DNA of 64,000 bases from a virus: IMG/VR virus record IMGVR_UViG_3300029999_000001, positions 3,557 to 67,556 of that record. One strand, 5' to 3'. Shown piece by piece: positions 52,998-57,761 of this stretch. Numbering within the stretch: position 1 is the stretch's first letter; each line of letters opens with the position of its first letter. Under the pieces are notes generated by a model. That model had not been told where the DNA came from. It saw only the letters and a program-made list of their open reading frames with translations, and did no database searches. The position numbers were made by a program, and so were the translations under genes.

Positions 52998-53606
52998 GTG
53001 GACAACGAAAACGGCAGGCCGCCAGACGCTGACCAGCTACCCGTGCGGCGCATCTCGATCAATCAGGTCGTCGCCTGGAACATGGCCTACTTCCGCCGGA
53101 TAGCGGACATCACCCAGGAAGGACTCGGCGAGCTGATCGGCGGCAGGCCCAAGACCGCCGTCTCCGCCGATGAGCGCTCATGGGACGGGAAACGGACCCG
53201 CGAGTTCGACGCCCACAGCATCACGCTCATCGCCGAGGCGCTCGGTGTGCCGATCATCGCCCTGTTCCTGCCGCCCGAAGACGACGGCCTCAGCGAGCAG
53301 TACGTCTACGACGCCGGCACCGGGCAGGGCTTCATGACCGACCTGATGCAGGCCGTACTCCCCAACACCGGAGACCGGACACCTGTCATGGACGCCTACC
53401 GGAAACGATTTCAGAACGCCGTCACCTACTATGCGGACCCGACGTTCGGTGAGCAGGTCGCCCGGTTCCTGCGGGACGCCACCGACGACGAGCTGCGCGC
53501 CGACCGCGCTTCGCGGATCCGCCAGCGGCAAGCCGACCTTGAGGGAGTGGCCGCCGAGCTCGGGGAGATCGCGGAAGCACTGGAGAACCCGGAGGCTGGC
53601 CAGTGA
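52998..53606 (+). CDS. XRE-type immunity repressor
   Basis: VAWNMAYFRRIADITQEGLGELIG...AVSADER HTH; coupled to the integrase. Confidence 0.75.
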   Translation: MDNENGRPPDADQLPVRRISINQVVAWNMAYFRRIADITQEGLGELIGGRPKTAVSADERSWDGKRTREFDAHSITLIAEALGVPIIALFLPPEDDGLSEQYVYDAGTGQGFMTDLMQAVLPNTGDRTPVMDAYRKRFQNAVTYYADPTFGEQVARFLRDATDDELRADRASRIRQRQADLEGVAAELGEIAEALENPEAGQ

Positions 53607-54991
53607 GCGAACCGGTCTACAAGCGCTGCAAATGCCGCGACGCTGACGGCAAGGACATCGGCGTGTCCTGCCCGAAGCTGAAACGGGCCGACGGGTCATG
53701 GAATCCGAAGCACGGGACGTGGTACTTCGCGCTCGAGCTGCCGCCCGGCCCCGGCGGCAAGCGGCGGCCGAGGCTGCGCCGCGGTGGGTACGAAACACGC
53801 GAGGCGGCGGCGGATGCCCGGGATCAGGCCAGGGCCACGCTCCGCAGGGGCGTTGACCCGTCCGTCAAGACGATGACCGGCAAGTACCTCACCACCTGGC
53901 TCGCTGGCCGCCGCGACCTCAAGCCGACCACCCGGCACAACTACGAGGTCAGCATCAGCACCTACCTGGTCCCGCTGCTGGGGCACATTGAGCTGAGCAG
54001 GCTTCAGCCGGAGCACATCGCGGACGCCTTCGCCACGATCAGGGAATGGAACGACCTGCTTCTCTCGGGGCAGCCGGTCCGCAAGTACCAGCGGCACGTC
54101 GGGCCCGCAGCGATGCAGCGGATCCGCAACGTCCTTCAGTCCGCGCTGCGGGATGCGATCAAGGCACGGATGATCGAGTTCAACGCCGCGAAGCTCGTCA
54201 GCATGGACCCGGTAACGTCCCAGAAGCCGATGATGTGGACGGCTGAGCGGGCACGGAAGTTCTGGGCCGGCTACGAGGAAGCACTCGAAGCCTCTCCGCT
54301 GACCCGCGGGGACAGGGCTTTCCTGGTGTGGCGGTCCGTCGCGCTGCGGCCCTTCCCGGTGATGGTGTGGAATCTGAGCGACCTCGGGGCCTTCCTCGAC
54401 TACGCCGCTGGGCATCGCCTCTCCCCCGTGTTCGAGCTTGCCGCCGGCACGGGGATGCGCCGCGGTGAGCTGTGCGGGCTGCGCTGGACGGATGTGGACC
54501 TGGATCAGAGCATCCTCTACATCACGCCGGGCGGGGTGCGTGTCCAGGCCGGATGGGAAGTCTTCGAAGGCGGCCCGAAGACAGAAGCGGGCGGCCGGGA
54601 GGTCCCGCTCATCGACCAGGACACCGGGACGCTCCGGGCGTGGAAGCGGCAGCAGAACCGGGAGCGGCTCTCCTGGGGCAGCGACTGGCAGGACAGCGGC
54701 CTTGTCTTCACCCATGAGGACGGGTCGGCATGGCACCCGGAGGCTGTGACTGATGCTTTCGAGCGGCTCGCGTTCGCCGCGCATCTCCCGCCGGTCCGGC
54801 TGCATGACATCCGGCACGCGCACATCTCCCAGTTGCTTGCCGCCGGGGTCGATGTCCGGATCGTTTCGGAGCGGGTCGGTCACTCCGGGAGCAAGATGAC
54901 CCGCGACTACGCGGCGGTGGCGGCTGAGGTCTCCCGGCAGGCCGCCGCGACGATTGTCGGGATGATCCCGAGGAAAGCAGGTGGGCAATGA
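53603..54991 (+). CDS. int: Tyrosine integrase
   Basis: GMRRGELCGLRW, PKT, LHDIRH, GHS and DY catalytic residues; N-terminal arm-binding region. Confidence 0.95.
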   Translation: MSEPVYKRCKCRDADGKDIGVSCPKLKRADGSWNPKHGTWYFALELPPGPGGKRRPRLRRGGYETREAAADARDQARATLRRGVDPSVKTMTGKYLTTWLAGRRDLKPTTRHNYEVSISTYLVPLLGHIELSRLQPEHIADAFATIREWNDLLLSGQPVRKYQRHVGPAAMQRIRNVLQSALRDAIKARMIEFNAAKLVSMDPVTSQKPMMWTAERARKFWAGYEEALEASPLTRGDRAFLVWRSVALRPFPVMVWNLSDLGAFLDYAAGHRLSPVFELAAGTGMRRGELCGLRWTDVDLDQSILYITPGGVRVQAGWEVFEGGPKTEAGGREVPLIDQDTGTLRAWKRQQNRERLSWGSDWQDSGLVFTHEDGSAWHPEAVTDAFERLAFAAHLPPVRLHDIRHAHISQLLAAGVDVRIVSERVGHSGSKMTRDYAAVAAEVSRQAAATIVGMIPRKAGGQ

Positions 54992-55200
54992 GCAACAGCC
55001 GCAGTTTCCGCCGCCGCCTGGAGGCGAGCCGCAATGACCGGCGGTCACGGCGCGGCCTGGCGATGACCTCCACGCCATCGCTTAGCACCACGCGCCGATG
55101 GCTGAAGGCGGCTGAAGCCGAAGGCGTCGTGAGGCGCGCGGAGGATCGGCGCACGGGGAAGCCCGGCCGGCCCGCGCATATGTGGGAGCTGGCGCAGTGA
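54988..55200 (+). CDS. Small basic protein (winged-helix fragment-like)
   Basis: LSTTRRWLKAAEAEGVVRR...GRPAHMWEL. Confidence 0.4.
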   Translation: MSNSRSFRRRLEASRNDRRSRRGLAMTSTPSLSTTRRWLKAAEAEGVVRRAEDRRTGKPGRPAHMWELAQ

Positions 55201-55215
55201 TTGGCGTGATTCCGG

Positions 55216-55497
55216 GCGGACTCCAAATGGACTCCCCCGCACCGCTCCGGGTGGGGGGCCGGAAAACGGCAGATGCGCGGCCGCATGCCCAGGGCCTATG
55301 GGTGGGAGCCGGTGAGCGGATTCGAACCGCTGACCTGCCGTTTACAAGACGCCGGGAGTTCATGTCGCCCGAAATAGACTCATGTCGGGCACATGGAGTT
55401 CGCGCAGGTCAGGGGAGAGGCAGATCAGCTTTCCGGGTCATCTCGTATCGCCTCAAAAGGCCCAACTCCAGGCCGTGCGGACTCCAAATGGACTCCC
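55216..55497. mobile_element. attP site with arm-type repeats
   Basis: Perfect 21-bp direct repeat GCGGACTCCAAATGGACTCCC at 55216-55236 and 55477-55497, flanking a tRNA-derived core, immediately downstream of int. Confidence 0.85.
55303..55351 (-). other. att core: 3' half of tRNA-Thr(UGU)
   Basis: Minus strand CGT-CTTGTAA-ACGGC-AGGTC-AGCGG-TTCGAAT-CCGCT-CACCGGCTCC; no D-arm or 5' acceptor strand upstream. Confidence 0.88.
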
Positions 55498-56041: not shown

Positions 56042-56044
56042 ACG

Positions 56045-56118
56045 TGGCGGAGACGTGATTTGAACACGCGACCTCTGAGTTATGAGCCCAGCGAGCTACC
56101 GAACTGCTCCACTCCGCT
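56045..56118 (-). tRNA. tRNA-Met(CAU), initiator (fMet)-type
   Basis: AGCGGAG-TG-GAGC-AGTTCGGTA-GCTC-G-CTGGG-CTCATAA-CTCAG-AGGTC-GCGTG-TTCAAAT-CACGT-CTCCGCC-A; 1:72 mismatch; CCA not encoded. Confidence 0.93.
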
Positions 56119-56127
56119 GTGATCATC

Positions 56128-56514
56128 TTACCGATGCCGTCTCCGCTTCGCCCGCAATGACGGCTTGACGTGCAGCGCCGGGCCGGAGTTCGCGCACGGG
56201 TTGCAGGTGGCGCAGCGGATGTGAGCGCTGGGGTTGCTGGCCGCGTGATAGTCGTGGGCGGCGAAAAGGGGCTGCAGCGTCGCCGCCATCCGCTGAAAGC
56301 CCCGCATGAGCGAGGTTACTTCCGGGATGACGATCACGTTGTAGTAGTAGGTGCTGTGCCGCAGAACGCTCCACCGTTCCGGCCAGATTGCGCCGCCCCC
56401 GTCGCAGATGATCCGTCCGGCGTCCGGGTTCCACCGCATCGCGTCGCTGCTGGTCGTGGAGTCCTCAAGGGCGCCGTCGATCGCGGCGAGGACGCCGGGA
56501 GTGTCAGTGGTCAC
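56128..56514 (-). CDS. Hypothetical protein (leaderless)
   Basis: CAGAAT 7 nt before GTG 56514; HIRCATCNPCAN near the C-terminus. Confidence 0.55.
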   Translation of the reverse strand: MTTDTPGVLAAIDGALEDSTTSSDAMRWNPDAGRIICDGGGAIWPERWSVLRHSTYYYNVIVIPEVTSLMRGFQRMAATLQPLFAAHDYHAASNPSAHIRCATCNPCANSGPALHVKPSLRAKRRRHR

Positions 56515-56603
56515 GGCTACCATTCTGCACGGCAACGGCCCGGAACCAGCGCTCTGGGCGCGATCCCGGGCCGCTCAGGGCCGTGGTGGGCGCGGCCCTG
56601 GTC

Positions 56604-56945
56604 TCAGCCGGTTAAAACGAGGCGTTTGCCTAGCGCGCACTCAAGCGGGATGGTGTCCGGGGCCCTGGGGAGCAGGCCCGCGTAGGAGGCCAGGTCGTAC
56701 GGAAGCCTGCTGAACTCTCCGGTGGTGATAATGAGCTCGGGGACGCCCGCTTCTAGCCGGCGGTGATGCCGGAGCCGCACGTGAGTCTCGTTCTCGGTGA
56801 CGTCCAGGCAGCCGATGCGTGTCATCGCAGTGGCATCGCCATGGCGATCCCACCGCCGACACTGCGCTGAAGGACACCGGCCGGGGGTGTGAGGATCTCT
56901 GGCTGCTCGATGCTGTTGGAGAAGCTGTTGCCGTACACAGGTCAC
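56604..56945 (-). CDS. Hypothetical protein (start probably MTRIGCLDV, ~56825)
   Basis: ORF track; the 3' half looks protein-like. Confidence 0.45.
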   Translation of the reverse strand: MTCVRQQLLQQHRAARDPHTPGRCPSAQCRRWDRHGDATAMTRIGCLDVTENETHVRLRHHRRLEAGVPELIITTGEFSRLPYDLASYAGLLPRAPDTIPLECALGKRLVLTG

Positions 56946-56990: not shown

Positions 56991-57179
56991 TCAGCCTTCG
57001 TAAACATAGTTGGGCTTGACGCCGTTGTGGAGGTAGGCACCATAGTGGGCCACGCCGCCGTACCGCAGCGCCACCACGACGGCGGCAGTCATGGCCAGGG
57101 CGATCAGGGCCAGCATGGCTAGGCGCATGGCGGGGGCTAGGCGCATGGCGGGGATTGTGTGCAGGACTCCGGGCTTCAT
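56991..57179 (-). CDS. Small secreted or membrane-anchored peptide (62 aa)
   Basis: GAAGGAGA RBS; basic N-region, hydrophobic MLALIALAMTAAVVVAL, polar C-tail ...NGVKPNYVYEG. Confidence 0.7.
   Translation of the reverse strand: MKPGVLHTIPAMRLAPAMRLAMLALIALAMTAAVVVALRYGGVAHYGAYLHNGVKPNYVYEG
57117..57152. repeat. 18-bp tandem duplication
   Basis: GGCTAGGCGCATGGCGGG twice (encodes PAMRLA twice). Confidence 0.9.
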
Positions 57180-57216
57180 GGTTCTCCTTCGCGGGATGTC
57201 CCTTATGCCCGCAGGA

Positions 57217-57633
57217 TCACTTGTTCCCGGGATGTCCGGAAGCGGGAACATTCACGGGAACCACCGACAGGCCAATATGGGCGACCTGGCCGAGCTCGTT
57301 GTGGCAGTACGGGCAGCGTGCGAGAGAAGTTACCGTCAGCATTGGCCCGGCATCCTCCCCCGGGGGCAGTGGCGGCAGGTGCCGGGTGCCGGCCATCGCC
57401 TCGATAGCAGCATGAGCCTTGATGAACACGCCGCCCGCGGCGAGCTCACGGTCCATCACCTGCCAGAACCGCGCAGACCGGCGGGCACCGGTTTCCGCGT
57501 TCGCGATCGTGGTCCGCTTGAACGGGGTCCGTGCGGCGAGCTGGTCTTGTGTCAGCCCGGCGGCGTGGCGGCGGTCCGCGAGCTGGTGGCCGAGATCCGC
57601 GAGCGCGGCGTCAACCTCGGCGGGGGTGGCCAC
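57217..57633 (-). CDS. XRE-family HTH regulator
   Basis: LGHQLADRRHAAGLTQDQLAARTPFKRTTIANAETG; C-terminal CPYC. Confidence 0.85.
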   Translation of the reverse strand: MATPAEVDAALADLGHQLADRRHAAGLTQDQLAARTPFKRTTIANAETGARRSARFWQVMDRELAAGGVFIKAHAAIEAMAGTRHLPPLPPGEDAGPMLTVTSLARCPYCHNELGQVAHIGLSVVPVNVPASGHPGNK

Positions 57634-57761
57634 TGCGCTCTGTCTTGGTGCGTGGAAGCATGCGCATACGGGTGATGTCCCTTCCGGGGTCTACGCGGTT
57701 CCTGTGGGACTGATCCCTAGGCCGGGTCCGTGTTCGCTGCACGGGCCCGGCCGCCTTCGGG

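Follow-up and report, generated by a model that had tools for sequence, protein, structure and literature searches.

Does the small export-type gene that follows an XRE regulator gene in the lysogeny region of a soil actinophage belong to a phage communication module of the arbitrium kind? To our knowledge, phage peptide communication has been described solely for phages of Bacillota, which use TPR receptors. A sequence-only reading of this locus had proposed an analogous actinophage signalling unit, in which a regulator, a secreted-type peptide and non-coding RNAs follow one another near attP and the two genes share operator-like sites. The window analysed here, a stretch of 64,000 nucleotides, covers bases 3557–67556 of a 100,323-bp record, and positions are those of the window unless genome coordinates are stated. 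We describe the peptide gene, here named pep62, the regulator, the control regions and the relatives of each, and compare several readings of what the peptide does.

Genome context of the XRE-pep62 locus

The record is a single virus, 100% complete according to CheckV, with a GC content of about 67%. The phage is a temperate soil actinophage of about 100 kb, and the cassette lies at its attP-proximal end. In the ORF map, structural and lysis genes occupy the + strand up to about 52 kb in genome coordinates. A tyrosine integrase gene is located at 53603–54991 on the + strand (Pfam E 2e-22). Adjoining it, on the − strand at about 55303–55351, is an attP-like core that corresponds to the 3′ part of a tRNA-Thr(UGU), extending from its anticodon loop across the T arm as far as the acceptor end. 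Rfam weakly matches the T arm of this fragment and nothing more. The earlier placement of the locus about 1.5 kb from attP agrees with the 1.64 kb between the fragment and the pep62 stop codon, with the fragment itself having been read by eye.

A very basic ORF of 70 aa (54988–55200, +) overlaps the integrase stop codon (ATGA) and lies just before attP. Its sole match is a weak one in Pfam (E 0.097), and it may encode a winged-helix or excisionase-like partner.

A run of small genes and replication genes on the − strand ends near attP with the XRE gene, pep62, small ORFs and a tRNA-Met gene. On the gene map, XRE and pep62 belong to the lysogeny end, with the early genes on one side and attP/int on the other. 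Downstream of pep62, orf38 (56822–56938, −) encodes 38 aa from a GTG start with AGGAG 9 nt upstream, and orf73 (56604–56825, −) encodes 73 aa. Both display coding-type GC3 in the GC profile, and neither has a family match. The stop codon of orf38 overlaps the start of orf73 (ATGA), and orf73 is predicted to be translationally coupled to orf38. The last ORF before the tRNA gene, orf135 (56128–56535, −), encodes at most 135 aa and has no relative in viral contigs. The leftward gene run has at its downstream end the phage tRNA-Met (CAU) at 56044–56118 on the − strand, identified by ARAGORN and by the Rfam tRNA model with 58.6 bits.

pep62 encodes an export-type small protein

Gene pep62 (56991–57179, −) encodes an export-type protein of 62 aa starting from the ATG at 57179. 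A Shine-Dalgarno sequence, AAGGAG, was read from the sequence at 57184–57189 (−), 4 nt before the ATG. GC at codon positions 1, 2 and 3 is 0.70, 0.44 and 0.84, resembling the integrase and XRE genes. The ORF of 62 aa with a strong Shine-Dalgarno sequence, as originally proposed, is thus upheld by the AAGGAG, by the coding-type GC profile and by homologues with a common start, as seen in the family alignment. Pep62 is a real gene.

The choice of start codon deserves attention. The leader contains a perfect 18-bp tandem duplication (57117–57152, −), found by repeat search and alignment, which doubles the residues P-A-M-R-L-A. None of the homologues has this duplication. It introduces two further ATGs in frame, which is probably the reason that the databases hold a 41-aa call for the gene. 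The N-termini of the homologues (M-P-G-A-I...) match the ATG at 57179, and this start is therefore favoured over the alternatives of 41 or 86 codons. A gene that callers miss or start wrongly, as in the 41-aa call, implies that genes of this type are under-counted.

The protein has the basic residues K2, R13 and R19, a hydrophobic core of 19 residues, the sequence R-Y-G-G, and a Tyr/Gly-rich tail, so that the basic N-region, hydrophobic core and aromatic C-tail attributed to it earlier are all present. The tail, 18–20 residues long, contains four Tyr and has the Y-[LV]-[YH]-x-G unit twice, the second time ending at the stop codon. A G-V-A site is found 6 residues after the core; an Arg follows the core directly, and the length of the core also fits a membrane anchor. 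Searches of Pfam, PHROG, PADLOC and NCBIfam gave no match for pep62, which appears to represent a previously undescribed candidate family of small proteins.

The neighbouring regulator is a plain HTH protein

The XRE gene (57217–57633, −; GTG start) lies upstream of pep62 and is separated from it by 37 nt. It encodes a 138-aa protein with a Cro/CI-type HTH, matching Pfam HTH_31 (PF13560) with an E of 9e-10 and 39.1 bits against a cut-off of 27, and PHROG places it in transcriptional regulator/repressor families. Its homologues form eight clusters with 62–89% identity; no relative was found in genome contigs, and metagenome contigs yielded one distant XRE (L001). The AF2 model displays a confident five-helix HTH over residues 1–81, followed at low pLDDT (residues 83–138) by a linker rich in Pro and a beta-hairpin that surrounds an invariant C-P-x-C. 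Its PDB neighbours are 434 Cro, C-proteins of restriction-modification systems, HipB, ClgR and the N-domain of Stl.

Pfam reports HTH_31/HTH_3 alone, and neither Pfam nor the AF2 model reveals a TPR or a ligand-binding domain. XRE is a plain Cro/CI-type HTH protein without a sensor domain. Both methods agree with the caveat, raised when the communication module was first suggested, that a 138-aa protein without TPR is not an AimR/RRNPP homologue. A search of the whole 100-kb genome for TPRs, carried out with the single TPR model TPR_12, gave no match over the cut-off.

The phage encodes two XRE regulators, the 138-aa protein and a 278-aa HTH_31-DUF5753 protein. The gene of the latter is outside the window (genome 91673–92509) and divergent from a DUF6879-DUF397 pair. 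Its AF2 model, built from a two-sequence alignment, has pLDDT below 50 beyond residue 85, and a PDB sequence search matched the HTH part alone. The regulator, DUF6879 and DUF397 genes together (genome 90820–92509) reproduce on a phage the 'XRE-DUF397' arrangement of Streptomyces. A third HTH_3 match in the genome was ruled out as a repressor, being a homing endonuclease inside a methylase gene.

A regulator-first layout of two genes with operator-like sites and a small hydrophobic product could also suggest a toxin-antitoxin or abortive-infection pair, in which XRE would be the autoregulating antitoxin and pep62 a membrane-damaging toxin released when XRE is lost or titrated. The HTH indeed gives weak, generic matches to HipB/Y4mF antitoxins and to CapH. 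However, these matches are far below the family cut-offs: with the Y4mF/HipB-type antitoxin model XRE reaches 22.6 bits, where the cut-off is 71.65, which places it outside type II antitoxins by this test, and pep62 matches no known toxin family. Small toxins that act on membranes are as a rule under the control of RNA, not of a protein antitoxin. Furthermore, a pore-forming toxin needs no conserved, repeated C-terminal motif outside the cytoplasm. We regard a toxin-antitoxin pair as very improbable.

Operator-like sites and a conserved control region

A near-palindromic 10-mer had been reported at 57193, 57229 and 57672, and it was found at all three positions, on one strand, exact at the first and with one mismatch at each of the others. 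Site 1 (AAGGGACATCCC; 57193–57204, −) is located in the 37-nt spacer between XRE and pep62, just upstream of the Shine-Dalgarno sequence. Site 2 (TCCGGACATCCC; 57229–57240, −) falls within the final codons of XRE and precedes site 1 by 36 bp, and a repeat search finds 13 of 14 nt identical between the two. Site 3b (AAGGGACATCACC; 57671–57683, −) contains the copy at 57672 and precedes the start of XRE by about 38 nt. A further element, site 3a (AGGGATCAGTCCC; 57706–57718, −), was read from the sequence 36 bp upstream of site 3b; it is a GGGA-N4-TCCC inverted repeat and is kept in L002, a related contig described below. Each control region therefore has a pair of GGGA-N2-4-TCCC elements spaced by 36 bp (57718/57682 and 57240/57204). 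The common spacing may reflect one binding geometry, or may be a coincidence.

The shared words of the GGGATGTCCC type might have arisen by chance, in which case XRE and pep62 would be mere neighbours, within a run of small early genes, with no regulatory link. The motif was picked after inspection of the sequence, and the 10-mer with at most one mismatch is not enriched, with 7 matches in the whole window against 9.6 expected, three of the seven falling within 490 bp. Several other chance repeats of 13–18 nt occur in the same 900 bp, and an inverted repeat of 4+4 is short for the operator of a dimeric HTH protein. Against chance, the 100,323-bp genome contains just two copies of the longer word AAGGGACATC, both on the gene strand and each in a short non-coding stretch: one lies about 38 nt ahead of the XRE start, and the other is in the 37-nt XRE-pep62 spacer. 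When both stretches were shuffled, they shared a 10-mer in 0.5–1.2% of trials (P 0.005–0.012). The upstream copy is also part of a block that is 97% conserved in L002, compared with about 88% for the coding sequence, and the pairs of elements at 36 bp are present in both control regions. Chance is an unlikely explanation in our estimate. The presence of AAGGGACATC before both genes lends moderate support to putative operators, and we infer that the GGGA-N2-4-TCCC elements function as such.

A GC-rich hairpin of 13 bp (57720–57752, −), found by repeat search, directly follows the stop codon of the upstream gene and bounds the conserved cassette on its left. The hairpin is probably a terminator that lacks a U-tract; a simple terminator scan missed it because it has no T run. 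The scan for sigma-70 and terminator consensus sequences gave no match.

L002, an IMG/VR contig that ends after XRE codon 38, was the sole related viral DNA found. Its identity to the present phage is 97% in the control region (57650–57719), 91% in the hairpin and about 88% in the coding part of XRE, whereas the upstream genes are unrelated (41%). A mosaic joint thus coincides with the hairpin (57720–57752, equivalent to L002:7880–7915), where identity rises from about 41% to more than 90%. This sharp jump indicates that the hairpin, the control region and the XRE gene move as a cassette. The strongest constraint appears to be on the non-coding control region, as expected of the promoter of an autoregulated repressor.

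The junction between XRE and pep62 shows no terminator, and its RNA fold is ordinary (z −0.2). Since neither a terminator nor an unusual RNA structure separates the two genes, XRE and pep62 are likely to be co-transcribed.

The pep62 family and its C-terminal motif

With phmmer, run exhaustively against 1.84 billion proteins, three relatives of pep62 were identified, in addition to the 41-aa database call of the same gene. A profile search enlarged the family to eleven clusters (P0010–P0020) of 53–95 aa, all from soil-type metagenomes and on short contigs. Neither pep62 nor the family profile matched viral contigs, and a tblastn search of cultured phages and plasmids gave no match.

Members of the family share a short basic N-region, a core of 18–19 residues, R-Y-G-G (or Q-H-G-A), and a tail of 19–30 residues. 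The Y-[LV]-[YH]-x-G motif occurs 0–2 times per tail, and in every tail that has it the last copy forms the end of the protein (9 of the 12 members); P0019 and P0020 are without it. In a subclade with near-identical leaders, mean identity is 82% in the leader and 47% in the tail, and several tail classes exist. The terminal hexapeptides vary accordingly, with D-Y-L-Y-Q-G, N-Y-L-Y-N-G, D-W-V-Y-N-G and N-Y-V-Y-E-G among others. Lack of conservation at the C-terminus had been named as a finding that would speak against a signal. A Y-x-Y-x-G unit stands at the stop codon in most members, the tails of this subclade are 47% identical, and two members have no motif. The C-terminal tail appears to be the recognisable part of the family, varying among relatives while the leader stays constant. 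The literature search found no record of a Y-x-Y-x-G-type motif, nor of peptide signalling in actinophages.

In most members a G-x-A site lies 6 residues past the hydrophobic core, and at −1 of the putative cleavage position several have V or P. P0016 and P0019 carry N-terminal extensions that begin with V-T-L-F, resembling the end of the XRE homologue P0009. BLASTP gave no alignment, and adjacency of the genes in these clusters is unsupported.

A look-alike peptide in another phage

A back-translated search for D-Y-L-Y-[QH]-G gave one convincing match, in a 107-kb phage of 71% GC (IMGVR_UViG_3300036819_000087, here L007). An ORF of 73 aa at L007:2220–2441 (+) encodes a predicted Sec leader ending in A-G-P-A, and this site directly precedes the first of three YLYHG copies. 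A 29-nt duplication accounts for two of the copies, and the stop codon directly follows the third. The ORF has a tyrosine recombinase gene on one side and two XRE genes on the other, one of them HTH_31-DUF5753.

Like pep62, this ORF is small, has an export leader, and belongs to a high-GC phage of about 100 kb with tyrosine recombinase and XRE genes nearby. Its repeats are units of the A-Y-L-Y-H-G type, the last of which (P-D-Y-L-Y-H-G) ends at the stop codon as in P0011 and P0017. In contrast to pep62, it has a clear cleavable Sec signal, three copies of the motif, and a peptide-then-XRE gene order. The L007 XREs are unrelated to the 138-aa XRE of the window phage; the HTH_31-DUF5753 proteins of the two phages are 28% identical, and the phages have only 13 weak protein matches in common. 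Among 3576 six-frame ORFs from both genomes, pep62 and the L007 ORF alone carry the motif at least twice or at the end. In a search with the family HMM the L007 ORF came first after the self-match, with an E of 0.14, so that common descent with pep62 is plausible, not proven.

These data bear on the proposal that pep62 is a signalling pro-peptide, which Sec would secrete and which would be cut behind G-G-V-A, perhaps with further trimming. One or two released Y-x-Y-x-G peptides would then accumulate in step with the number of infections and bias the choice between lysis and lysogeny. The receptor would be of a non-TPR kind, for instance the C-terminal hairpin of XRE after import of the peptide, the HTH_31-DUF5753 regulator, or a membrane sensor of the host. 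Several features would suit a signal: the motif ends the protein in three quarters of the members; leaders are kept better than tails, and the hexapeptides vary in the manner of pherotypes; pep62 and the L007 ORF are unique in the repeats and ends of the motif among the ORFs of both genomes; and a G-x-A site follows the core at a constant distance in most members. The A-G-P-A of L007 stands immediately before the first copy, in the neighbourhood of a recombinase and XRE genes that include an HTH_31-DUF5753 regulator, which the window phage encodes too. On the other side, the V or P at −1 in several members and the long core followed by Arg do not favour cleavage, and the kinship of L007 has an E of 0.14, with P0019 and P0020 devoid of the motif. 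The neighbouring regulator has 138 aa and no TPR, contrary to the third and fourth RRNPP criteria given below, and the analysis identified no receptor. We consider a secreted signal possible, yet doubtful.

A broader form of this proposal would join the pep62 family and the L007 precursor as secreted C-terminal hexapeptide signals in Actinobacteria, assembled from parts unrelated to arbitrium. Such signals might pass from phage to phage or from prophage to host, and would be received not by a TPR/RRNPP protein but by the XRE tail, an HTH_31-DUF5753 protein or a membrane sensor. We hold this broader form, in both its parts, with a shade less confidence than the signalling role of pep62 alone.

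A proposed role at the envelope of the lysogen

The explanation that we put first is that pep62 is a factor expressed in the lysogen and acting at the envelope, for example in exclusion, although we rate it at somewhat less than an even chance. The cassette would open with its own hairpin and the highly conserved control region, followed by the XRE repressor gene. XRE is proposed to bind the pairs of GGGA-N2-4-TCCC elements at its own promoter and at the XRE-pep62 junction, thereby regulating itself and setting the output of the downstream genes. Pep62 would be made along with XRE in the lysogen, probably from one transcript. Sec would insert it with the N-terminus in and the C-terminus out, leaving only the tail of 18–20 residues, ending in Y-x-Y-x-G, outside the membrane. 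This short linear tail would be the working part. Either anchored or after cleavage by signal peptidase, pep62 may act at the envelope to the benefit of the lysogen, and its candidate roles are superinfection exclusion or the modulation of an envelope or sensor protein of the host.

Several results argue for an envelope factor. Pep62 is a real gene with a family, and it maps between the early genes and attP/int. As a small HTH protein of the Cro/CI type without a sensor domain, XRE is one of two XRE regulators in the phage. In L002 the control region is 97% identical in spite of an unrelated upstream gene, with the joint at the hairpin, and AAGGGACATC is common to the two control stretches and found nowhere else in the 100 kb. 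No terminator or strong RNA structure intervenes between the genes, and a core of 18–19 residues followed by Arg has the length of a membrane anchor. Precedents exist in repressor-linked defence genes (PMC6426606) and in Ltp (PMC3952083). On the other hand, pep62 shows no homology to known exclusion or defence proteins, and its external part is about 20 residues, in which the best-kept feature is a repeated terminal hexapeptide that has no obvious use in exclusion. The leader is also kept better than the tail, and the L007 look-alike, with its textbook signal-peptidase site and three copies, would fit a soluble secreted product better than one that stays anchored. The probability left by an envelope factor, a secreted signal and a membrane toxin goes to other readings of pep62.

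With its repeated and diversifying C-terminal hexapeptide, the small exported family, which if the L007 ORF is its kin would occupy lysogeny modules in two unrelated lineages of actinophages, is a concrete candidate for signalling in soil Actinobacteria that is cheap to test. Equally, pep62 is a candidate prophage envelope or exclusion factor of a new, minimal type. The conserved, portable control region and the XRE gene provide a defined candidate pair of repressor and operator.

Comparison with known systems

Arbitrium offers the nearest comparison for the gene arrangement. In both cases the lysogeny region of a temperate phage has a small export-type ORF beside an HTH regulator, and the candidate active part of pep62 is at the extreme C-terminus and variable among relatives. 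Pep62 differs by its Tyr-rich repeat motif, its core of anchor length and a high-GC actinobacterial host. The order of regulator, peptide and non-coding RNAs, which had suggested aimR-aimP-aimX, holds in that the peptide gene is behind XRE, but three ORFs and the tRNA-Met gene (56044–56118) precede the small RNAs. Because of these intervening genes the analogy to an aimX-like RNA is loose, and the locus has no aimX-like layout.

RRNPP membership was judged by the five criteria of PMC10075063. Pep62, with 62 aa, is within the 10–100 aa of a propeptide (criterion 1). With respect to Sec secretion and signal-peptidase cleavage (criterion 2), the basic N-region, the 19-residue core and the G-V-A site are in keeping with a secreted product, and the length of the core and its subsequent Arg suit an anchor just as well. 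RRNPP receptors have 250–500 aa with peptide-binding TPRs (PMC10075063), whereas XRE has 138 aa (criterion 3, about 250–500 aa) and shows no TPR by Pfam, AF2 or TPR_12 (criterion 4). As for neighbours (criterion 5), pep62 lies 37 nt from an HTH regulator that does not qualify as a receptor. Since receptor length and TPR both disagree, pep62-XRE is not a member of the arbitrium/RRNPP systems. Of the arbitrium-like unit first proposed, the export-type gene behind XRE, the shared element and the terminal motif remain; XRE, a protein of 138 aa without TPR, does not qualify as the receptor, and the analysis brought up no other.

Small membrane-targeted genes next to a repressor and int commonly serve the lysogen in exclusion or defence. 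Genes co-expressed with an immunity repressor can provide defence, as with genes 43/44 and the repressor gene 45 of Gordonia phage CarolAnn, and in mycobacteriophage Charlie a single prophage membrane protein blocks DNA injection (PMC6426606). Lysogeny modules also encode Ltp-type exclusion proteins (PMC3952083). Pep62 shares with lambda cI-rexA-rexB, CarolAnn, Charlie and Sie2009/Ltp of lactic-acid-bacteria phages the arrangement of a predicted membrane-targeted protein beside a repressor-type gene, with which it is probably co-transcribed, and the gene map places it in just such a position, between the early genes and int/attP. Searches of PHROG, PADLOC, Pfam and NCBIfam gave no match between pep62 and known exclusion or defence proteins (Sie, Ltp, RexB, CarolAnn gp43). 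It is much smaller than these, having a single predicted span and about 20 residues outside the membrane, and its C-terminal hexapeptide repeat is unmatched among them.

Small single-pass regulators of sensor proteins, such as MgrB, are proteins of about 50–60 aa with the N-terminus inside, in which a short external tail does the work. Pep62, although phage-encoded and without homology to them, resembles these regulators in its size and predicted topology.
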